This document shows, piece after piece, positions 1,083-50,475 of a stretch of DNA of 64,000 nucleotides. The stretch comes from Dehalococcoidia bacterium (GTDB lineage: Bacteria; Chloroflexota; Dehalococcoidia; Lucifugimonadales; Australimonadaceae): contig OZ242210.1 of the NCBI GenBank assembly GCA_965206315.1, positions 2,641,619 to 2,705,618 of the forward strand. Direction: 5' to 3'. A program made the position numbers and the translations under genes. A model generated the notes under the pieces. That model was not told where the DNA came from. It saw only the letters and a program-made list of their open reading frames with translations, and ran no database searches. The first letter of the stretch is position 1. Every line of letters begins with the position of its first letter.

Positions 1083-1210
1083 CGTTCCGGCCTCCCCGTC
1101 ATTCCCGCGAAGGCAGGAACCTCTCTTGGTGTAGGGGCATCCCTCGTGGGTGCCCATACCGGCTCCCCTCGCCCTCTGGGAGAGGGGCTGGGGGTGAGGG
1201 TTGCTGACGC

Positions 1211-3550: not shown

Positions 3551-4705
3551 CTACGTGTCGCGCTCATTCGTGGGGCCGACCACGCCATTGCTGTACGGGA
3601 TGAACGCCTTCATCCGGGAGATGACGCCGTGCTTCGCAAGCTCGGCTTCGAAGATGCGGTTGATCTCCGGGTCTTGGTCCTCGTACTCGATCTGCATCCC
3701 GCCTTCCTTGATGCTGACGTTGGACTCGCCCCACTGGCTCGGTTGGCCGTCGCCGCTGCGGAGCGCGAGGTAGCGCGCGGGCTCAGGCCCCGTGTTGAAG
3801 TGCTGATGGTAAGTGGCATCGGAGGGGACGATGATCATGCCGCCCTTCTTCCAGGGCGCGATCTCGTACTCGGGGTTATCGTTATCCCACCAGAGCGCCG
3901 AGAACCCGACTCCGCCCAGGATGACCAGGTGCGCGCCCGGCCCGTGCCGGTGGCCCTTCTTGTACGTGCCCACCGGGAACTCGGAGATGTGCGCTCCGGT
4001 CACGTTCCCCGCGAGGTCGAAGTGCGTGTTGATGCCGCCCGCGCCGCGGTCGCGGTACTTCCACAGTTTCATGATGTCGGCGTTCGGCACGAAGTTCGTC
4101 TTCCACATCGTCCCGAACTTCGTCCCCTTCCGCTGGTAGAGCGTCCCCTGCCCGTTGAAGAAGTCCTCGTCCTCGCCGGAGAAGCGGTCCTTGAACCGGA
4201 ACGGGTTGTTGAAGACGAACTCGTTGCTGCGGAACATGCGCATCACGGGCGGCGCGTTCGTCATGGAGACGTACCGCGCGGGCTCCGTGCCGCTGCCGTT
4301 GAAGTGCTGGTACGACGCGTTCAGCGGGATGACCAGCAGGCTCCCCGCCGCCCACTCGAACGTCGCCTTCTGGCCCTCGCTCAGCCACACGCTCGTCGCG
4401 CCGCGGCCGGAGACGACGTACATCACCTCTTCGTACATGTGGCTCTCGGGCTCCGACTTGCCGCCAGGCTTGATCTCCACCAGGTGCGCGTCGTTCGGCA
4501 GCATCGGGTTCGGGATGTTGATCACCGCGCCCTTGCCGCCCTTCCGCTCCCAGTCGCCGAGCTCGACCTCGTTCAGGTCCTCAAACTTGTAATCGACGAT
4601 GCGCTTGACGCCCTCGCGCTCGATCCAGTCGAAGTACGGATCGCCCGCCTCCCACATATCCATCTTGTCGGGGACTTCTGCCTCTCGCAGGTCAACGACT
4701 GCCAT
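3551..4705 (-). CDS. bicupin protein (gentisate-dioxygenase-like fold); paralogue of 34396-35556
   Basis: 384-aa ORF with two cupin modules (HMYEEVMYVVSGRG ... and GHRHGPGAHLVILGG ...HQHFN). GGGAGGAG lies upstream of the ATG. It aligns along its full length with the 386-aa ORF at 34396-35556. Confidence 0.8.
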   Translation of the reverse strand: MAVVDLREAEVPDKMDMWEAGDPYFDWIEREGVKRIVDYKFEDLNEVELGDWERKGGKGAVINIPNPMLPNDAHLVEIKPGGKSEPESHMYEEVMYVVSGRGATSVWLSEGQKATFEWAAGSLLVIPLNASYQHFNGSGTEPARYVSMTNAPPVMRMFRSNEFVFNNPFRFKDRFSGEDEDFFNGQGTLYQRKGTKFGTMWKTNFVPNADIMKLWKYRDRGAGGINTHFDLAGNVTGAHISEFPVGTYKKGHRHGPGAHLVILGGVGFSALWWDNDNPEYEIAPWKKGGMIIVPSDATYHQHFNTGPEPARYLALRSGDGQPSQWGESNVSIKEGGMQIEYEDQDPEINRIFEAELAKHGVISRMKAFIPYSNGVVGPTNERDT

Positions 4706-4791
4706 GTCTCGCTCCTCCCGTCGGTCTCAGTAGTACGTGCGCCCCACTTTACCACGAGTGCAGGTTGTCTCGTCATTCCCGCCTCTTCCCG

Positions 4792-5802
4792 TCATTCCCG
4801 CGAAGGCGGGAAGGTGGATTCACATTCGAAGTGCAACACCTGCTCTCGTAGCACCTCGGCCGGGGTCTGCCACTCGAGGCACTTGCGCGGCGTATTGTTA
4901 TACACCCTCAACAGCGCCGTGAACTCTCCCTCCGACAGTGAGGCCAGGTTCGTCTTGCGGGGTAAGAACCAGCGCATCCGTCCGATAGCGTTCTCCACGC
5001 CTCCCTTCTGCCACGGAGAATAGGTGTCGCAGAAGAACGTCTCGATGCCCCAGGCGTGGAGTTCGTAGTGGTGGGCGAACTCCGTGCCGTTGTCGAACGT
5101 GACCGTCTGGCGGAACTCCGGTGGCAGCGGTCCCAGGACGGCGGCGATGGCTTTGGCGACCGGTGCTGCTGCCCTCGAAGGTCGCCGCACCGCGATCAGC
5201 AGCCTTGAACGGCGCTCGTGCAGCATCAGCACCGTCTGCCCGGTCCTGCCGAACTGCATCCCATCCGCCTCCCAGTGCCCGAATGTCTGCCGGTCGGCAA
5301 CTGCTGCAGGGCGTTCCGAGAGCGGCCGGCGGTGCAGAATGGTGCGGGCCGAACTGCTCCCTCCGCGCTGGTGCCGACCGCGCCGCCACTTCCCCCGTCG
5401 CAAGAGCTTGCGCCACGAATAGTCCTTCGTCCGCGCTATCTGCGCGTAGATGAACCGGTAGATGCTCTCATGGGAGGTGACGCTCTTGCCGCGCTCCTTC
5501 TTCAACCGCCCCGCCACTGCCTCCGGCGACCAGCCCAGTTGCAACCCGCTCAGCACATCCCTGCGGAGCTCGTCGTCTCGGTCCAGCCGTGCGCCACTCC
5601 AGCGCCGTGCACGGGCCTGCTCGTGGGCATAGGTCGCCCGGTAGCCGCCGTCCTTCGTGCCGTTGCGCTTCAACTCCCGAGCAATCGTCGGTGGCGGGCG
5701 ATCCAGAGTTGCTGCGATTTCCCGGAGCGAGCGCCCCTCAGCACGTAGGCGGGCAATCGCACAGCGTTCCTCAATCCCAAGCTGCGTATAGCGGTTCCCC
5801 AT
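4792..5802 (-). CDS. IS30 family transposase
   Basis: 336-aa ORF with an N-terminal HTH (RSLREIAATLDRPPPTIARELKRN) and a DDE core (HWEAD ... TFDNGTEF ... PWQKGGVEN). The reading frame runs through the left IR and stops at the TGA of the flanking hairpin. Confidence 0.9.
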   Translation of the reverse strand: MGNRYTQLGIEERCAIARLRAEGRSLREIAATLDRPPPTIARELKRNGTKDGGYRATYAHEQARARRWSGARLDRDDELRRDVLSGLQLGWSPEAVAGRLKKERGKSVTSHESIYRFIYAQIARTKDYSWRKLLRRGKWRRGRHQRGGSSSARTILHRRPLSERPAAVADRQTFGHWEADGMQFGRTGQTVLMLHERRSRLLIAVRRPSRAAAPVAKAIAAVLGPLPPEFRQTVTFDNGTEFAHHYELHAWGIETFFCDTYSPWQKGGVENAIGRMRWFLPRKTNLASLSEGEFTALLRVYNNTPRKCLEWQTPAEVLREQVLHFECESTFPPSRE

Positions 5803-5844
5803 GGCAACACCTTAGTCTGGTGTTGCACTTCGTTTGTGAACTTA
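4813..5844 (-). mobile_element. IS30-family insertion sequence, copy 1 (about 1.03 kb), inserted in a family-A hairpin
   Basis: Imperfect terminal inverted repeats ttcacattcgaagtgcaacacc (4819-4840) and ggtgttgcacttcgtttgtgaa (5819-5840). The flanks gcgggaa | IS | gggaacccaggtgg rebuild a family-A unit. GGGAA is present on both sides. Confidence 0.85.
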
Positions 5845-6077
5845 GGGAACCCAGGTGGCCGCCAGGCTACGCGGCGCTGTGCGAACAAGAGGCACGCCTG
5901 GATGTCTTCCGGCTCGAGGAAGGTGTACTCCCGCAGGATGTCCTCTGCTGTATCTCCGGCCGCAAGCATCCCGAGAACGTGCTCCACCGCGATACGCATG
6001 TCGCGGATGATCGGTTTGCCGCCGAAGACATCCGCCCGCACCGTGATGCGTTCGAGTATCTCTTGTTCAGTAGGCAT
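5670..6077 (-). CDS. DUF433 domain protein whose 3' end is altered by the IS30 insertion
   Basis: ATG at 6077, 3 nt after the MFS stop. The product MPTEQEILERITVRADVFGGKPIIRDMRIAVEHVLGMLAAGDTAEDILREYTFLEPEDIQACLLFA is a typical DUF433. The frame then reads into the IS right IR (PKFTNEVQHQTK...) and stops only at 5670. Without the IS it would end ...PPGFPPSRE at the hairpin TGA. Confidence 0.6.
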   Translation of the reverse strand: MPTEQEILERITVRADVFGGKPIIRDMRIAVEHVLGMLAAGDTAEDILREYTFLEPEDIQACLLFAQRRVAWRPPGFPKFTNEVQHQTKVLPWGTAIRSLGLRNAVRLPAYVLRGARSGKSQQLWIARHRRLLGS

Positions 6078-7348: not shown

Positions 7349-7389
7349 GCGGAGAGTCTACCCTGTCACAAACTCCGCCCGTCCTTCAT

Positions 7390-7468
7390 CGTCATTCCAG
7401 CGGAGGCTGGAATCCAGTGGAGCGGAGTAGCGCGCCATTCCGCTCATGGTGAGCCTGTCGAACCACCC
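7390..7468. repeat. interspersed repeats (A and F families)
   Basis: cgtcattccagcggaggctggaatccag at 7390-7417 and cgctcatggtgagcctgtcgaaccaccc at 7441-7468. The F family recurs at about 12387-12412. Confidence 0.85.
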
Positions 7469-7527
7469 ATCTCGTCCATCCTGTCCATCCCTGTTGATTC
7501 CTTCCCCGCGTGGGGTAACATCACCTT

Positions 7528-8556
7528 ATGCAGACACCTTTCGGCATCGTCGACGGCGACGGACACGTAACCGAGTCTGAGGACCAGATACGCCCCTACA
7601 TGGACGAGCCTTACCGCTCGCGGGGCGGCCAGATACGCGCGGGCCACAACTACTGGGACATCAACCTCGGCGGTCGGCTCGGCTCCGTCGCGAAGGACGC
7701 CCGGACCTGGCTCGACGCCATGGATGAAGGCGGCATGGAGACCGCCATCCTCTACCCCACCTCCATCGGCTTCACCGCCGCGCTCATCTGGGAGCCTGAC
7801 GTCGCGGTCGCCGTCTGCCGCGCCTACAACGACTTCCTCTACGAGGAGTTCACGACCGTCAGCCCGCGGCTCAAGAGCGTAGCGCTGCTCCCATTGCAGG
7901 ACGTCGACGAGGCCGTCAAGGAGCTGCGGCGCGCCGTCACCGAGCGCGGACACTCCGGCGCGATGCTCTCGGCCATCGGCGCGCACCCGCCCCTCGGGCG
8001 CGCACAGTACTTCCCGCTCTACGAGGAGGCGCAGCGCCTCGGCGTTATGCTCGCCGTCCACTCCTCCACCCAGGGCATCCACCACCTCGCCGCCGACGAC
8101 TACCAGCGCTTCATCGAGGTCAACACCTTCTGCTTCCCGGTCGGCCTCTTCCGCCACATGGTCAGCATGATGTTCGCCGGCATCCCTGAGCTCTTCCCCG
8201 ACCTGCGCGTCGGCTGGATGGAGGCCGGCTGCGGCTGGGTGCCCTACTGGCTGGAGCGCATGGACGAGAAGTGGAAGATACGCGGCGCCGACGAGGCCCC
8301 CATGCTCCGCAAATCACCCACCGAGTACGTGCAGCAGGGCAACTGGTACTTCCACTCCGAGGCCGACGAGAAGATGCTCCCCTACACCGCCTCCGTCATC
8401 GGCAAGGACAAGCTCTTCTTCGCATCGGACTTCCCCCACTGGGACTCCGAGTACCCCCACAATGTGCAGGAGATGCTCGCCCGCGAGGACATCGACGAGA
8501 GGCTCCGCCGCAACGTCCTCCGCGAGAACGCCCTCCGCCTCTACGGGATGGCGTAG
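7528..8556 (+). CDS. amidohydrolase-2 family (ACMSD-like TIM-barrel metal hydrolase/decarboxylase)
   Basis: 342-aa ORF with an N-terminal IVDGDGHV metal motif and C-terminal FASDFPHWD. It is one of four paralogues in the window. Confidence 0.85.
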   Translation: MQTPFGIVDGDGHVTESEDQIRPYMDEPYRSRGGQIRAGHNYWDINLGGRLGSVAKDARTWLDAMDEGGMETAILYPTSIGFTAALIWEPDVAVAVCRAYNDFLYEEFTTVSPRLKSVALLPLQDVDEAVKELRRAVTERGHSGAMLSAIGAHPPLGRAQYFPLYEEAQRLGVMLAVHSSTQGIHHLAADDYQRFIEVNTFCFPVGLFRHMVSMMFAGIPELFPDLRVGWMEAGCGWVPYWLERMDEKWKIRGADEAPMLRKSPTEYVQQGNWYFHSEADEKMLPYTASVIGKDKLFFASDFPHWDSEYPHNVQEMLAREDIDERLRRNVLRENALRLYGMA

Positions 8557-8575: not shown

Positions 8576-8598
8576 CGTCATTCCCGCGAAAGCGGGAA
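8576..8598. repeat. left half of a family-A hairpin (left inverted repeat of GIY-YIG unit 1), interrupted by IS30 copy 2
   Basis: cgtcattcccgcgaaagcgggaa is followed directly by the IS end ggtgaattcaca. The rest of the unit (tctcg) resumes at 9633. Confidence 0.8.
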
Positions 8599-9627
8599 GG
8601 TGAATTCACATTCGAAGTGCAACACCTAGTCTAGGACCTCGGCCGGGGTCCGGTAGCCGAGGCACTTGCGCGGCGTATTGTTGTAGGCCTGCACGAGCTC
8701 TGCAAACTGCTCGTCCGTCACAGTGACGAGGTCAGTCTTCCGTGGCAGCATCCGGCGCATCCTACCGATCGCATTCTCTACACCTCCCTTCTGCCACGGG
8801 GCGTGGGTGTCACAGAAGAAGGTCTCCATCCCAAGCGCGTGCAACTCGTGATGCCGCGCGAACTCCGTCCCGTTGTCGAACGTCACCGTTCGGCGCAGTT
8901 GCGGCGGGAACCTTCCCAATGCCCCCGACATCACACGGGCAATCGGCCCCGAGGCCTTTCCCGGAGGACGCACCGCAATCAGCAGCCGCGAATGCCGCTC
9001 ATGCAGCGTCAACACAGCCTGGCCGTAGGTACTGAACAGCATCAGGTCCGCCTCCCAGTGCCCAGGCTCTCGCCGGTCTGCTGCCGATGCAGGCCGCTCC
9101 GAGAGCGGTCGACGCAGACGGATGAACGAGGCCGGACTGCCTCCCCCGCGCCCGCGCCGGCCCCGCTTCGACTTCCCTCGCGGCAGGTAGTGGCGCCACG
9201 TGTAGTCCTTCGTCCGTCTGATCTGCCCGTAGATGAACCGGTAGATGCTCTCGTGGGAGATGATGCGTCTGCCTTTCACCAGGGCGAGTCGGTTCACGAC
9301 TTCCTCCGGCGACCACCCTCTCCCAAGGGCGGCAAGCACCTCTGCGCGCAGAGGACCATCACGCTCCAGCCGTGCTCCGCTCCAACGACGGGCTCGCGCC
9401 TGCTGTTCTGCATACCGTGGCTGATAGCCATCCCTCCTCGATCTGTTGCGCTTCAGTTCCCGAGCAACCGTCGATGGCGCGCGATCCAGAGCTGCAGCGA
9501 TTTGCCGGACCGAGTGTCCCTCGGCTTGTAAGCGGGCAATCGCACACCGCTCTTCAATGGAGACCTGCTGATAGTGCTTTCCCATGGCAACACCCTAATG
9601 AGGTGTTGCACTTCGTTTGTGAACTTA
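8599..9627 (-). mobile_element. IS30-family insertion sequence, copy 2 (about 1.03 kb), inserted in a family-A hairpin
   Basis: IRs ttcacattcgaagtgcaacacc (8605-8626) and ggtgttgcacttcgtttgtgaa (9602-9623) are the same as in copy 1. GGGAA is on both flanks (8594-8598 and 9628-9632). Confidence 0.85.
8626..9585 (-). CDS. IS30 family transposase (diverged paralogue of 4792-5802)
   Basis: 319-aa ORF collinear with copy 1. It is clearly related but diverged (roughly two-thirds identical by eye) and carries the same HTH and DDE motifs. Confidence 0.9.
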   Translation of the reverse strand: MGKHYQQVSIEERCAIARLQAEGHSVRQIAAALDRAPSTVARELKRNRSRRDGYQPRYAEQQARARRWSGARLERDGPLRAEVLAALGRGWSPEEVVNRLALVKGRRIISHESIYRFIYGQIRRTKDYTWRHYLPRGKSKRGRRGRGGGSPASFIRLRRPLSERPASAADRREPGHWEADLMLFSTYGQAVLTLHERHSRLLIAVRPPGKASGPIARVMSGALGRFPPQLRRTVTFDNGTEFARHHELHALGMETFFCDTHAPWQKGGVENAIGRMRRMLPRKTDLVTVTDEQFAELVQAYNNTPRKCLGYRTPAEVLD

Positions 9628-9662
9628 GGGAATCTCGTATCCCTTACCCCTATACTCAACGC

Positions 9663-9974
9663 ATGACCTCTACACCCCGCCAAATCCGCCAGCCCTGCGT
9701 CTACCCCATCACCAGCAGACCCGGCGGTCCACTCTACGTGGGCGTCACGTCCAACCTCATTCAGCGCGTCTGGCAGCACAAGTCCCACTTTGCGCAAGGG
9801 TTCACAGACCGCTATAACATTGCCAGGCTCGTGTGGTTCGAGCAGCACGAAACTATGGAGAGTGCCATCACGCGGGAGAAGGCGATCAAGAAGTGGAATC
9901 GCGCTTGGAAAGAAGAACTGATCGAGGGGCAGAACCCTTCCTGGCATGACCTCTGTGACGACATCTGCCGATAG
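9663..9974 (+). CDS. GIY-YIG nuclease family protein (small stand-alone URI-domain type)
   Basis: MTSTPRQIRQPCVYPITSRPGGPLYVGVTSNLIQRVWQHK...REKAIKKWNRAWK shows the GIY-YIG motifs, the conserved Arg and the Glu. Confidence 0.85.
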   Translation: MTSTPRQIRQPCVYPITSRPGGPLYVGVTSNLIQRVWQHKSHFAQGFTDRYNIARLVWFEQHETMESAITREKAIKKWNRAWKEELIEGQNPSWHDLCDDICR

Positions 9975-9978
9975 GCTG

Positions 9979-10006
9979 CGAGATTCCCGCTTTCGCGGAA
10001 TGACGG
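9979..10006. repeat. family-A hairpin in inverted orientation (right inverted repeat of GIY-YIG unit 1)
   Basis: cgagattcccgctttcgcggaatgacgg. Its reverse complement, ccgtcattccgcgaaagcgggaatctcg, matches the reconstructed left unit (8576-8598 plus 9633-9637) except for one base. Confidence 0.85.
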
Positions 10007-15909: not shown

Positions 15910-16100
15910 ATCGTTCCTGCAAAGGCAGGAACCTCGCTTGGTTCCCTCGCCCTCTGGGAGAGGGAAACGCGCTTCAGCGCGAGGGTGAGGGTGAACCAGA
16001 CGCGGGGCGCAGCCCCCGTCGTTCCTGCGGAGGCAGGAACCCCGCCTTCTCCCCTCTCCTGAGGGAGAGGGCAGCGCGCTTCAGCGCGCGGGTGAGGGCC
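15910..16100. repeat. intergenic repeat cluster (A', B, A', B)
   Basis: The cluster contains atcgttcctgcaaaggcaggaacc, cctcgccctctgggagagggaaacgcgcttcagcgcgagggtgagggtg, gtcgttcctgcggaggcaggaacc and cctctcctgagggagagggcagcgcgcttcagcgcgcgggtgagggcc. Confidence 0.9.
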
Positions 16101-16994: not shown

Positions 16995-17023
16995 CGTCAT
17001 TCCAGCGAAAGCTGGAATCCAGG
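16995..17023. repeat. family-A hairpin, left inverted repeat of GIY-YIG unit 2
   Basis: cgtcattccagcgaaagctggaatccagg. The exact reverse complement recurs at 17444-17472. Confidence 0.9.
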
Positions 17024-17090: not shown

Positions 17091-17405
17091 ATGACCTCCG
17101 CTCCCCGCCGCAGAGAACCGCGCCGTCCTTGTGTCTACATCCTCGCCAGCCGGCGCAACGGCACGCTCTACACCGGTGTCACCTCCAACCTGCCTCAGCG
17201 CATCTGGCAACACAAGCAAGGCCTCGGTGATGGCTTCACAAGGAGATACGGCATCCACTTGCTCGTGTGGTACGAGCAGCACGAGACGATGATGAGCGCC
17301 GTCGGTCGCGAGAAGGCGATCAAGGCCTGGAAGCGAGGCTGGAAGATTGAACTCATCGAGACATCCAATCCGAAGTGGCGCGACCTCTACGAAGAAATAG
17401 GTTGA
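17091..17405 (+). CDS. GIY-YIG nuclease family protein (paralogue of 9663-9974)
   Basis: MTSAPRREPRRPCVYILASRRNGTLYTGVTSNLPQRIWQHK...REKAIKAWKRGWK. It is collinear with the first copy, and the few bases around the ATG are also shared. Confidence 0.85.
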   Translation: MTSAPRRREPRRPCVYILASRRNGTLYTGVTSNLPQRIWQHKQGLGDGFTRRYGIHLLVWYEQHETMMSAVGREKAIKAWKRGWKIELIETSNPKWRDLYEEIG

Positions 17406-17443: not shown

Positions 17444-17472
17444 CCTGGATTCCAGCTTTCGCTGGAATGACG
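17444..17472. repeat. family-A hairpin, right inverted repeat of GIY-YIG unit 2
   Basis: cctggattccagctttcgctggaatgacg is the reverse complement of 16995-17023 (29 of 29). Confidence 0.9.
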
Positions 17473-21805: not shown

Positions 21806-23578
21806 TCACCACACCCCCAGCCGGTTCCGCGACGCGCTGTCGTCCTCGTCATCATCCTGGTCCAGAGGCGGCGGCTCCGCGTACGGCGGCGGGAGGTCAT
21901 AGCCGTAGGCCTCGATGTGCGGCCTCGGCGGGGGGTCGCGCAGGAAGGGCTCGGCGCCCGTCCAGATGCCGAACGACGGCGGAACGAGGAACGCGAGCGC
22001 GAGTGCGTCGGCCTTGTCCGGCGAGGGCATGCCGCGTTTGCGCATCTCCGGCTTGCCTTCCAGCCGGATCTGCCCCGAACTCGAGATGTCGTAGCGCAGC
22101 CCGAGCAGTTGACCGGCCAGCTCCTCGTCGCGCGGGATGGCGATCAGCCGGCGCTCCAGCAGCCTGCGCAACTCCCAGAAGATCTCCGATCGGCGGTTGA
22201 AGAAGCGCATCGGACGCTTGGCCGCGCCGCCGAAGTGGACGCCGTAGACCGGCGATCCAAGCTCACGAAGGCGGTCGACGACGCCCCCGCCGACGCCGCC
22301 CTCGTCGACGAAGATCGCCTCCGCGTTCCACTCCCGCACCGCGCGACGCACTTCGAACACGAGGCGCATCGTGTCCATGCGCTCGAACGAGCGCACCGAC
22401 AGCACACGCTGTCCCTGCCGCACGCAGATGGCCGACTTGTCGAAGCCGTACCGCGCCACGTCGACGCCGATGTAGACGGGCTCGTTGGGGTCGAAGAAGC
22501 CCTCACCCGCACTTCCAGTGCACCCTCTCCCGGGGGAGAGGTGACTATCGTCATTCCCGCCCTCACCGTCATTCCCGCGCAGGCGGGAATCTCGCAGCCC
22601 AGGGGAGGTAGGGGGCGAGGTTCCTGCCTCCGCAGGAACGACGGGTCCATCCCCACTCCCCGCCGGTACACCCTCACCCGCCGCACTGTCGTGCGCCGAC
22701 CTCTCCCCGAGGGAGAGGTGTGTTTGACTCCCCTCGCCCGCGGATGGTTGGCCTGTTTGGCCCCCCTCGCCTTGGACGGTGGACGTCTCCCACCGCTCCA
22801 TGGCGGACTCCACCGCCTCGCGGCCTACGAGCGAGTCGTCGAGTGCGTCGGGGAACCGGGCGAGGACGGACGCGGCGTAGAGCGGGTGGTCCTCGCCGTA
22901 GTCGAGCGCGTACTCCTCGGCGTACTCGGGCGTGATCATGCCGCGCCTGCCGCCGCCCTCGCCGGTGAAGTTGGGCGTGTCGAACGCGGAGATGGCGATG
23001 CGGTGGTAGAAGTTCCGCTTCGCGTGGTGCGAGGCGTAGAACTCGCCGTCGCGCGAGAGCGCGTTGCCGACCAGCAGGAGGCGCTCCGGCTGCAGCCGCT
23101 TGATGGCGTCGACGTGCGCCTGCGGCATGGCGTGCGCCTCGGTGACGACAACGAGCAGCTCCGCCGCGTGGAAGCCCTGGATGTTGAGCGCGTTGTTGGT
23201 CGAGAAGCCGAGCGCGAACCGCTGCTCGTCGATGCGGTACGCGTTCGTGAGCATCCGCCCGCTGAGCACGTCCGCGGCAGCCGCGTACGCCTCGCGCATC
23301 TCCCGCCACACGATCTCCTCGACCTGCCGCTGCGTCGGGCCGAGGGTGAGGGCCTTGCTCTCCGGGCGCGTCTCCAGCCACCAGAGCACGGCGCGGCCGG
23401 CAACCCAGTCCTTGCCGGAGCCGTTCGCCCCGACGACGCTGACGCGCCGGTTGTCGACGAGCGCTTCGAGCATCTCGGCCTGCTTCGAGTACGGCGTTCC
23501 GGTGCCGCCGAGCACGTCGGTCACGAACCCGACGGGGTCGTTCGCGTAGTGTGTAAAGTCCTCTGCCACGGCTACCAC
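21806..23578 (-). CDS. phage terminase large subunit (TerL)-like protein carrying an in-frame repeat-derived insert between the ATPase and nuclease domains
   Basis: Walker A-like VVGANGSGKDW and Walker B-like LLVVVTEAH. The RNaseH-like nuclease half shows YIGVDVARYGFDKSA, IFVDEGGVGGGVVDRL and SPDKADALALAF. GTG starts are possible at 23578 or 23569. About 95 codons (about 22500-22775) are built from A/B-type repeats. Confidence 0.8.
   Translation of the reverse strand: MVAVAEDFTHYANDPVGFVTDVLGGTGTPYSKQAEMLEALVDNRRVSVVGANGSGKDWVAGRAVLWWLETRPESKALTLGPTQRQVEEIVWREMREAYAAAADVLSGRMLTNAYRIDEQRFALGFSTNNALNIQGFHAAELLVVVTEAHAMPQAHVDAIKRLQPERLLLVGNALSRDGEFYASHHAKRNFYHRIAISAFDTPNFTGEGGGRRGMITPEYAEEYALDYGEDHPLYAASVLARFPDALDDSLVGREAVESAMERWETSTVQGEGGQTGQPSAGEGSQTHLSLGERSAHDSAAGEGVPAGSGDGPVVPAEAGTSPPTSPGLRDSRLRGNDGEGGNDDSHLSPGRGCTGSAGEGFFDPNEPVYIGVDVARYGFDKSAICVRQGQRVLSVRSFERMDTMRLVFEVRRAVREWNAEAIFVDEGGVGGGVVDRLRELGSPVYGVHFGGAAKRPMRFFNRRSEIFWELRRLLERRLIAIPRDEELAGQLLGLRYDISSSGQIRLEGKPEMRKRGMPSPDKADALALAFLVPPSFGIWTGAEPFLRDPPPRPHIEAYGYDLPPPYAEPPPLDQDDDEDDSASRNRLGVW
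22500..22775. repeat. block of at least four interspersed repeat units lying inside the TerL ORF
   Basis: The block contains cctcacccgcacttccagtgcaccctctcccgggggagaggtg, cgtcattcccgccctcaccgtcattcccgcgcaggcgggaatctcgc, gcgaggttcctgcctccgcaggaacgacggg and caccctcacccgccgcactgtcgtgcgccgacctctccccgagggagaggtg. The boundaries are approximate. Confidence 0.8.
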
Positions 23579-28262: not shown

Positions 28263-28279
28263 CTGTGCCCTACGCTGCC

Positions 28280-28939
28280 CTATCCTCCCGTCACGGCGGC
28301 GCGGCAGCACTGCTCGTCCTGCTCGGGGGTGCCGCCCGCGACGCCGATCGCGCCGACGACGTACGGCCTGCCGATGGGGATGGCGCCGGCCTCCGCGACG
28401 AGCCGCGTGCGGTCGAGCGACTCAGGGGCGCGTTCGAGGGAGCGCTCGTTGACCTGCGACGTGGAGAGGGTGAAGCCCACGGCGGTGTACGCTCGCTTCG
28501 CGGCGGTCTGCGCCTTGGTTGGCTCGTCCGAGGACGCCGGGGACGCGGCCACGGGCTCGCCGAGTTGGTCCACGACGACGACGCTCACGTCGAGGCCCAA
28601 CTCGCCCGCGCGGGCGAGGGCCGACCGGATGAGGCGCTCAGCCCACTCGACGGAGACAGCAGGCGTGTCCTGCTTCGCCTCGAGGAAGAAGACGCGGTTG
28701 CGCTCGATCGAGGCCTTCCACTCATCGGGCACCTCGTGCTCGAGGTAGATGGCGTCGACGGGGCAGACGAGCACGCACTGCTCGCAGGCGATGCAGAGGG
28801 CCGGGTCGATGAAGAACTGGGGCTCATCGTCGGAGGATGCGATGCAGTCGACGGGGCAGACCTCGACGCACGTGCCGTCCTTCACGCCGATGCAGGGGTC
28901 GGTGATGACGTAGCTGGAGAACGGGGAGTCCGTGGTCAT
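28280..28939 (-). CDS. fusion protein: FdxA-type 7Fe ferredoxin N-terminal domain plus GlcG/DUF336 (HbpS-like) C-terminal domain
   Basis: ATG 28939, with GGAGGG 8 nt upstream. The N terminus is SYVITDPCIGVKDGTCVEVCPVDCI ... CIACEQCVLVCPVDAIY ... EVPDEW (C-x7-C-x3-CP plus CxxCxxCxxxCP). The C-terminal half (LDVSVVVVDQLG...KAQTAAKRAYTAVGF...GAIPIG...VGAIGVAGGTPEQDEQC) matches the GlcG/DUF336 pattern. Confidence 0.8.
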   Translation of the reverse strand: MTTDSPFSSYVITDPCIGVKDGTCVEVCPVDCIASSDDEPQFFIDPALCIACEQCVLVCPVDAIYLEHEVPDEWKASIERNRVFFLEAKQDTPAVSVEWAERLIRSALARAGELGLDVSVVVVDQLGEPVAASPASSDEPTKAQTAAKRAYTAVGFTLSTSQVNERSLERAPESLDRTRLVAEAGAIPIGRPYVVGAIGVAGGTPEQDEQCCRAAVTGG

Positions 28940-28954
28940 GCGCAAGTCCCTCCG

Positions 28955-29512
28955 CTACGACCCCGGGAGGCCGGTGGGCAGTGGGATGTCGGTCAGCACG
29001 GCGTCGCCGACGTACTCGTGGCGCCCCGGCGCGAGGCCGGCGGCTCTGGCGGCTGCCGCGGAGTCCACGGGGCGGACGGTCCCGCGGTAGCCCAGCTCCC
29101 GGATGTAGGCGGCGAGGCTGAAGTTGACGGACGCCGACTCGTGCAGGACGTGCTGCGCCGCCATGCCCTTCACCCTGTCGGGGTGATGCTCGGCGTGTAC
29201 CGCAATCACGACGGTCAAGGGGTGGTCCTCGACCAGCCCGGCGGGGTCGGCGTCGTCGCCGGGTCGGAGGAACGCGGTGTCGGTCCTCGCCACGCCGATG
29301 GCACTGCCGCCCAGGAAGCGGACGAGCTGATCGAGGTCCTGCAGCAGGCGGTCGGGCTCGGGCAGCTCGCTGCGGACAGGGAAGATGCGTCCCTCCGGTG
29401 CGCCGCGGATGGCCTCGGTGATGGCGTTCGCCGGGTCGGCGAGCGGCCGGTTCACGAAGGCGTCCCAGTAGGGGTCGCGCGAGCGGCGCAGCGGCCAGGG
29501 GAGGAGTCCCAT
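28955..29512 (-). CDS. truncated RdhA-core-like protein (paralogue of the N-terminal/core part of 29516-30796, lacking the Fe-S module)
   Basis: 185-aa ORF collinear with the neighbouring RdhA-like protein (LVRFLGGSAIGVARTD vs VARHLGASDVGIMRVH; AAYIRELGYRG vs AGYIRELGYGV; VLTDIPLPTG vs ILTDLPLVPD). It ends at the point where the neighbour's ferredoxin module begins. Confidence 0.6.
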   Translation of the reverse strand: MGLLPWPLRRSRDPYWDAFVNRPLADPANAITEAIRGAPEGRIFPVRSELPEPDRLLQDLDQLVRFLGGSAIGVARTDTAFLRPGDDADPAGLVEDHPLTVVIAVHAEHHPDRVKGMAAQHVLHESASVNFSLAAYIRELGYRGTVRPVDSAAAARAAGLAPGRHEYVGDAVLTDIPLPTGLPGS

Positions 29513-50389: not shown

Positions 50390-50475
50390 GGCCCTCACCC
50401 GCGCATCAAAGATGCGCACCCTCTCCCTCAGGAGAGGGGATTGGCTGCGAGGTTCCTGCCTCCGCAGGAACGACG
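50390..50475. repeat. intergenic repeats (B inverted, A')
   Basis: The repeats are gccctcacccgcgcatcaaagatgcgcaccctctccctcaggagagggg and gcgaggttcctgcctccgcaggaacgacg. Confidence 0.9.

Follow-up and report, generated by a model that had tools for sequence, protein, structure and literature searches.

A clade of IS30-family insertion sequences that probably targets one arm of CGTC-type REP hairpins

In the 64-kb stretch of DNA analysed here (the window), two diverged insertion sequences interrupt a small, abundant hairpin repeat, family-A, at the identical nucleotide and with the same orientation relative to the repeat. This arrangement raises the question of what these elements are, where exactly their ends lie, and whether the shared position reflects a target chosen by their transposases or has some other origin.

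The elements are delimited by a 22-bp core of their terminal inverted repeats (IRs), TTCACA(TT/AA)CGAAGTGCAACACC, which has exactly four matches in the window (at 4819, 5819-5840, 8605 and 9602-9623), where no chance match is expected. These four matches form two inverted pairs, each of which encloses one ORF on the minus strand, encoding 336 amino acids in copy 1 and 319 in copy 2. The features of the two copies are the following:

4813-5846, minus strand: IS30-family element copy 1, 1034 bp, delimited by the IR cores and the cross-lineage analysis of the 3-bp target-site duplication (TSD)
4813-4840: IRR of copy 1, GGTGGATTCACATTCGAAGTGCAACACC
5819-5846: IRL of copy 1, reverse complement CCTAAGTTCACAAACGAAGTGCAACACC
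4792-5802, minus strand: transposase ORF of copy 1, 336 amino acids, from its translation and its domain and NF033563 matches
5804-5826, minus strand: inverted repeat GCAACACC-N7-GGTGTTGC, from the sequence and a predicted 8-bp helix (z -1.5)
8599-9629, minus strand: IS30-family element copy 2, 1031 bp, delimited by the IR cores
8599-8626: IRR of copy 2, tip GGTGAA
9602-9629: IRL of copy 2
8626-9585, minus strand: transposase ORF of copy 2, 319 amino acids, from its translation

Both copies are members of the IS30 family. Their transposases score 231.9 and 232.5 bits against the NCBIfam IS30 equivalog NF033563 (cutoff 80), hold an HTH_38 domain (E 2e-15 and 5e-16) and an rve match (E about 1e-5), and share the catalytic residues D180, D237 and E270, whose spacing D-57-D-33-E corresponds to the DD(33)E pattern of the family. 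The sizes of 1034 and 1031 bp and the 28-bp terminal IRs, which match at 21 of 28 positions in copy 1 and 22 of 28 in copy 2 around the near-perfect 22-bp core, also fit the range of the family (about 1.0-1.25 kb, with IRs of 20-30 bp). The two transposases are 64% identical over 318 amino acids, close to the two-thirds estimated by eye in the original prediction, and the conservation of the IR cores that it had noticed is borne out by the four exact matches; at the DNA level, the interiors have diverged throughout, in contrast to the ends, which hardly differ. Neither transposase had an identical record in exact-protein look-ups, and a tblastn search of the PLSDB plasmids recovered relatives at 47.5% identity at most and no ISfinder name. 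Two of these plasmid relatives (L187 and L188) were inspected and show related IRs, no REP flanks and no clear TSD. A scan of the whole window at the Rfam gathering thresholds gave no matches. The inverted repeat GCAACACC-N7-GGTGTTGC, present in copy 2 too, joins the inner part of IRL to the Shine-Dalgarno/ATG region of the transposase gene, and the predicted pairing may occlude the ribosome-binding site on read-through transcripts. Pairing between IRL and the Shine-Dalgarno sequence is a common arrangement that silences such transcripts.

The family-A unit into which both elements are inserted is a 28-bp hairpin of the form CGTC / ATTCCCGC / GAAG / GCGGGAAT / CCAG, found 26 times in the window at up to four mismatches, about 24 of these units being uninterrupted. 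The intact consensus unit is predicted to form an 8-bp helix of -13.7 kcal/mol. According to Di Nocera et al. (2013, PMC3733652), a REP of the CGTC-1 class has an unpaired CGTC tag and a CCA tail on either side of a hairpin whose 8-bp stem begins with AT and encloses a loop of 4 nt. All of these features are present in family-A, as are the high copy number and the head-to-head dimers of the class (26 units in 64 kb, with inverted pairs such as 22568/22642), and on its sequence family-A can be assigned to the CGTC-1 REPs. The interrupted units consist of the following parts:

4790-4812, plus strand: left part of the copy-1 REP, with the CGTC tag, the full 5' arm, the GAAG loop and seven of the eight nucleotides of the 3' arm
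4810-4812: left TSD copy of copy 1, GAA
5847-5854, plus strand: right TSD copy of copy 1, GAA (5847-5849), and REP tail CCCAG
8576-8598, plus strand: left part of the copy-2 REP, loop GAAA, with the left TSD copy GAA at 8596-8598
9630-9636, plus strand: right TSD copy of copy 2, GAA (9630-9632), and REP tail variant TCTC(G)

On the plus strand, both elements are preceded by CGTCATTCCCGCGAA(G/A)GCGGGAA and followed by GGGAA and the remainder of a family-A unit (CCCAGGTGG or TCTCG), exactly as had been read at the outset. The insertion had been placed directly after the right arm of the hairpin; the actual point is still within the 8-bp 3' arm, ahead of the final T. By our arithmetic, the chance that two independent insertions fall at the same position and orientation of 26 units is (26/128000)^2, about 4e-8.

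A scan with the IR core, limited to one genome per species, returned 119 loci (loci of this and the other searches are labelled L001 onward), hosted by Chloroflexota, Dehalococcoidia/SAR202, Nitrospirota, many Alphaproteobacteria, Zixibacteria, Bdellovibrionota and Acidobacteriota. Among the scanned genome contigs, the nearest matches to the window are 85-89% identical. The two-ended elements number 37, and their boundaries were placed 6 bp outside the IR core. The non-redundant two-ended sites amount to 35 and come from Chloroflexota, Nitrospirota, Alphaproteobacteria, Zixibacteria and others; strict hairpins, with the TSD at one and the same arm position, make up 25 of them, and about five more are looser hairpins. 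The strict hairpins present 11 different 5'-arm sequences (TTCCCGC, TCCTGAC, TACCGGC, TGCCGGC and CCCGGAC, for example), each with its complementary 3' arm, so that the stems differ between hosts and the position of the insertion is constant. An independent and unbiased metagenome scan with the IRR core yielded 41 loci, 40 of them informative, and the tag-plus-hairpin directly adjoins the IRR tip in 36 of these 40 flanks. The type 1 REP association of Tobes & Pareja (2006) is therefore found at both window copies, at 25-30 of the 35 sites and at 36 of the 40 metagenomic IRR flanks, and the sharing of one target by two related lineages, proposed for the window alone, turns out to be a trait of the whole clade.

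The specificity is strong, not absolute, since about five of the 35 sites are not hairpins. The clear cases are L108, the half-REP L072, and a sublineage formed by L046, L055 and L070, which has about 40% transposase identity and the same 22-bp IRL core and does not insert into REPs; L055 and L070 hold an internal stop in the IRR-defined frame. As an outgroup, this sublineage could help to map what determines REP targeting. The opposite orientation is suggested in only two of 113 non-redundant IRL flanks, counting those of the two-ended sites. In both (L056, JAPPHT010000049.1, about 1920-1951, and L001), the locus is one-ended and the hairpin adjoins IRL instead of IRR, which appears to represent a reversed insertion at seemingly the same position. 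In the nearest available relative of the window, the 8-kb locus L026 (OY764542.1), which is 85-88% identical to window 28267-29498, fragments of IS elements of the clade are found at 1565-1881, 4582-5195 and 7350-7666, suggesting clustered or nested insertions.

The dependence of the element on its target is also written in the transposase gene, which lacks a stop codon of its own inside the IS in 32 of 37 elements. In 23 of these 32, the frame closes exactly 21 nt beyond the IS, at a TGA complementary to the GTCA of the REP tag, after a read-through peptide across IRR of the form ..LHFKCEST. Copy 1 represents this typical form: its ORF crosses IRR (..VLHFECEST), continues through six REP-encoded codons (FPPSRE) and stops at the TGA at 4792-4794, in the REP GTCA. 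Copy 2 is atypical, with its own TAG nine codons before the IS end. At non-REP sites or at REPs with a GTCG tag, the frame continues for 66-1356 nt. In a protein database, which offers separate support for the borrowed stop, exactly 336 amino acids are found in 73 of the 120 best homologue clusters, and the hairpin-encoded tail of six amino acids in about 85 of these 120; the tails (FPPSRE, FLLSQE, YPPSRV, CPLSRA and SPLSRG) covary in their first and last residues (F..E, Y..V, C..A, S..G), as stem complementarity predicts. The borrowing of the hairpin TGA, noted originally for copy 1, is thus correct and general. The missing stop codon can be regarded as a compact record of long-term target fidelity and suggests a built-in penalty for off-target insertion. 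In practice, gene callers append REP-encoded tails to these transposases, and REPs occupied by the elements are points where assemblies break.

Copy 1 also affects a neighbouring gene:

5670-6077, minus strand: DUF433 gene (PF04255, E 2e-20, residues 11-66)

This ORF continues across the REP tail into the copy-1 IRL and acquires an IS-encoded C-terminal extension. It had been described as disrupted, which holds for the C-terminal tail, replaced by the IS, and does not hold for the domain, which is complete over the Pfam residues 11-66. Before the insertion, the ORF would have ended as ...PGFPPSRE* at the TGA of the copy-1 REP. Host genes, too, can have their 3' ends overlapped by REPs that supply the stop codon: this would hold for the DUF433 gene without the IS (window 4792-4794 and 5847-6077), and in L180 the downstream REP (794-817) contains the end of a GIY-YIG ORF.

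Three alternative readings of these data have to be weighed, of which one concerns the ends, one the hairpin and one the cause of the targeting. The window copies alone are unable to fix the ends, because both targets are identical: GGGAA stands literally on both sides of both copies, and the original prediction had suggested a duplication of up to 5 bp, with the IS ending in ...CTTA and the elements extending over 4813-5844 and 8599-9627. The question is settled by lineages in which tip and target differ, since only 3 bp match there: L066, with the tip TCTAAA, has a TSD of GTA, and L067 one of GCA. In L082 (tip CCTAAG, TSD CCT), the 5-bp reading fails outright, giving CCTCC on one side and CCTGG on the other. 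A constant 6-bp tip with identical 3-bp flanks fits 34 of the 37 two-ended elements, both window copies among them, and a 3-bp TSD is also found at the non-hairpin sites L108 (ACC) and L046 (TTC). Duplications of 2-3 bp are usual in the IS30 family, and that of 3 bp found here agrees with them. The ends are therefore placed at 4813-5846 and 8599-9629 with a TSD of GAA, so that the left ends first proposed stand and the right ends shift outwards by 2 bp. By comparison of these lineages, the extra GG is the IRL tip (CC on the transposase strand), matching the target by coincidence. Of the GGGAA, then, the GAA is duplicated and the GG belongs to the IS. The original prediction had named, as one finding that would refute it, that the GGGAA forms part of the IS termini, and this has come true for half of the condition, namely for the GG. 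The 5-bp duplication is very improbable and is already largely refuted by these sequences.

The constant company of the hairpin, which follows IRR in nearly all copies across phyla and provides the TGA that the transposase ORF needs, could also mean that it is a terminal stem-loop of the element itself, the family-A units being IS-derived remnants or MITEs. Against this, the 3-bp TSD straddles the IS alone and not the IS plus hairpin, and the joined flanks rebuild an intact REP identical to the approximately 24 uninterrupted units of the window. The same IS lineage adjoins hairpins of different stem and loop, as seen in the MKWU01 contigs for a single lineage, and uninterrupted host-specific REPs occur within the same 8-kb loci (four of them in L004). 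Insertions without a hairpin exist as well (L108, L046 and L082), and CGTC REPs are an independent repeat class in at least five phyla (PMC3733652). An approximate empty site, near-orthologous, is offered by L132, a relative of the window: its IS, 92% identical to copy 1, lies in the context GTCGTTCCTGCGGAGGCAGGAA[IS]GAATCTCGCCCC downstream of a gene that is 89% identical to window 22798-23230, and the counterpart of this filled site in the window (22621-22642) is the uninterrupted unit GTCGTTCCTGCGGAGGCAGGAACCTCGCCCCC. No empty site of copy 2 turned up when metagenomes were scanned for it. That the hairpin travels with the element is thus extremely doubtful. It is likewise very unlikely that the targeting owes nothing to the transposase and results from random insertion followed by selection for the survivors in REPs, or from spread through gene conversion or homologous recombination. 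Points in favour of this view are that REPs lie between genes, where an insertion is probably neutral, and that the flanking REP halves give 7-23 bp of homology. However, selection cannot account for insertions that are precise to the nucleotide and almost fixed in orientation at more than 60 independent sites, recombination would have only a very short homology to work with, and the position is constant in spite of stems that differ between hosts and between copies. Moreover, the off-target copies have normal 3-bp TSDs, and therefore transposition is active, and the clade-wide loss of the stop implies a long-term, reliable landing at the REP site.

The preferred reading, to which we give a probability of about 85%, is that of a widespread IS30 clade whose transposase integrates site- and orientation-specifically into CGTC-type REP hairpins. 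In this reading, the target consists of CGTC / 8-bp stem / 4-nt loop / 8-bp stem / CCA, and a staggered strand transfer duplicates nucleotides 5-7 of the 3' arm (GAA in the window), leaving IRR next to a hairpin that keeps seven of its eight stem pairs, and IRL next to the last stem base (T) and the CCA(G) tail. The transposase gene, normally without its own stop, exits through IRR and six hairpin codons to the TGA opposite the REP GTCA tag, and in this way the choice of target also sets the C-terminus of the protein and gives its mRNA a stable 3'-terminal hairpin. Off-target copies would be expected to yield an aberrantly extended transposase. By analogy with IS30 (PMC9333248), transposition is likely to follow a copy-out-paste-in route through an IR-IR junction, with the target chosen by the transposase. 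Given variable stems between a conserved tag and tail, we favour a transposase that recognises the CGTC/CCA flanks or the geometry of the hairpin over one that reads the sequence of the stem. A component of sequence recognition is nevertheless possible, given that L072 and L108 keep only a GCGGG sequence resembling the 3' arm. The clade therefore offers a natural system for asking if a DDE transposase reads hairpin geometry and tags instead of sequence. More speculatively, the IRR tip TGGATTC resembles the bottom strand of the target, CTGGATTC, which recalls the targeting of IRs by IS30, with a different geometry, and a junction promoter might be formed across the IRR-IRL circle.

The closest model for these elements is IS30 from Escherichia coli, which prefers nearly palindromic hot spots and its own IRs and generates a 2-bp TSD (PMC9333248). 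They share with it a one-ORF DDE transposase with an N-terminal HTH, a size of about 1-1.2 kb, IRs of about 26-28 bp, a short TSD and a marked target specificity. In contrast to IS30, the TSD of the window elements is 3 bp instead of 2, and the ORF of typical members of the clade has no internal stop. The target is also used differently: IS30 inserts at the centre of a 24-bp palindrome, whereas the insertion in the window clade is asymmetric, at nucleotides 5-7 of the 3' arm of the REP hairpin, and in one orientation. Another member of the IS30 family, IS1630 from Mycoplasma fermentans, has reportedly been found to target inverted repeats or stem-loops, and is said to duplicate the whole inverted repeat, of variable sequence and about 19-26 bp. 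Compared with IS1630 as so described, the window clade duplicates only 3 bp, and the position is fixed within a single, defined family of repeats.

REP targeting has been documented for the families IS3, IS110, IS4, IS256 and IS5, the IS30 family not being among them, and the elements concerned are IS1397/ISKpn1, ISPsy8, ISPa11, ISPpu9/ISPpu10, ISRm19, ISRm22 and IS621 (PMC1525189). As in the window copies, the diverged relatives ISPpu9 and ISPpu10 have a common insertion point (PMC1525189). The published REP-targeting elements use species-specific REPs, while the window clade uses REPs of the CGTC type across several phyla and depends on them for its stop. The REPs of the published elements are presumably of the GTAG type. 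In the literature searched, ISfinder lying outside that search, no report of REP targeting by the IS30 family was found. This family would then join the list of REP-targeting insertion sequences, with a clade that follows one REP architecture in several phyla. For the CGTC REPs themselves, only "fortuitous" associations with transposase genes, and no dedicated transposase, have been described, and the dRS3 repeat of Neisseria belongs to the CGTC-1 class (Di Nocera et al. 2013, PMC3733652). The Nf/MDA filamentous prophage is known to integrate into this repeat (PMC3898611); the element known to integrate in dRS3 is therefore a phage, whereas that of the window is an IS30-family element.

The REPs of the window are also found around two small genes encoding proteins of the GIY-YIG type:

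9663-9974, plus strand: GIY-YIG gene; its upstream REP (8576-8598) carries IS copy 2, and a degenerate inverted REP lies at 9978-10005
About 17130-17399: GIY-YIG gene, with REPs at 16996-17017 and 17450-17471

Both genes are bracketed by inverted CGTC REPs, and the same bracketing was seen around the homologues in every context fetched, which came from Sphingomonadales, a Sterolibacterium-like betaproteobacterium, Bdellovibrionota and several Mb-scale MAG contigs; the layout is also present at L004, L006, L029 and L161-L186. These genes (about 95-103 amino acids, PF01541) have consistently a CGTC REP in the same orientation 12-35 nt upstream, and usually an inverted REP within a few nucleotides of the stop or overlapping it. 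In L164, the REP forms a perfect 28-bp terminal inverted repeat. The layout resembles that of a REPtron, in which REPs flank a RAYT gene of the Y1/HUH type, with the difference that the REP-flanked genes encode here GIY-YIG nucleases of about 95 amino acids. No report linking GIY-YIG proteins with REPs was found in the literature searched.

The association bears on the open question in the literature of what, if anything, mobilises the CGTC REPs, and may be relevant to their stated lack of a dedicated enzyme. A tentative proposal, which we consider possible and rather doubtful, is that CGTC REPs are the terminal inverted repeats or the offspring of GIY-YIG units, in analogy with REPtrons, and that the IS30 clade is an obligate hyperparasite of them that takes its stop codon from the REP tag. 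If this were true, off-target copies of the clade would make an extended and possibly inactive protein. Two other arrangements of repeats were observed in this context. Window 22568-22642 holds a MITE-like inverted REP pair, GTCATTCCCGCGCAGGCGGGAATCTCGCAGCC...GGGGGCGAGGTTCCTGCCTCCGCAGGAACGAC, with the shape expected of a REP-GIY-YIG-REP unit minus its gene, or of a REPIN-like dimer. In addition, a second hairpin family (CCCCTCTCCTGAGGGAGAGGG, for example) lies a few nucleotides downstream of a REP subtype, GTCGTTCCTGC..GCAGGAACC, which suggests composite, BIME-like repeat modules, at the following sites:

Window about 16040-16075: second hairpin family
Window 50420-50452: second hairpin family
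Window 1120-1165: second hairpin family
L132, 449-493: second hairpin family
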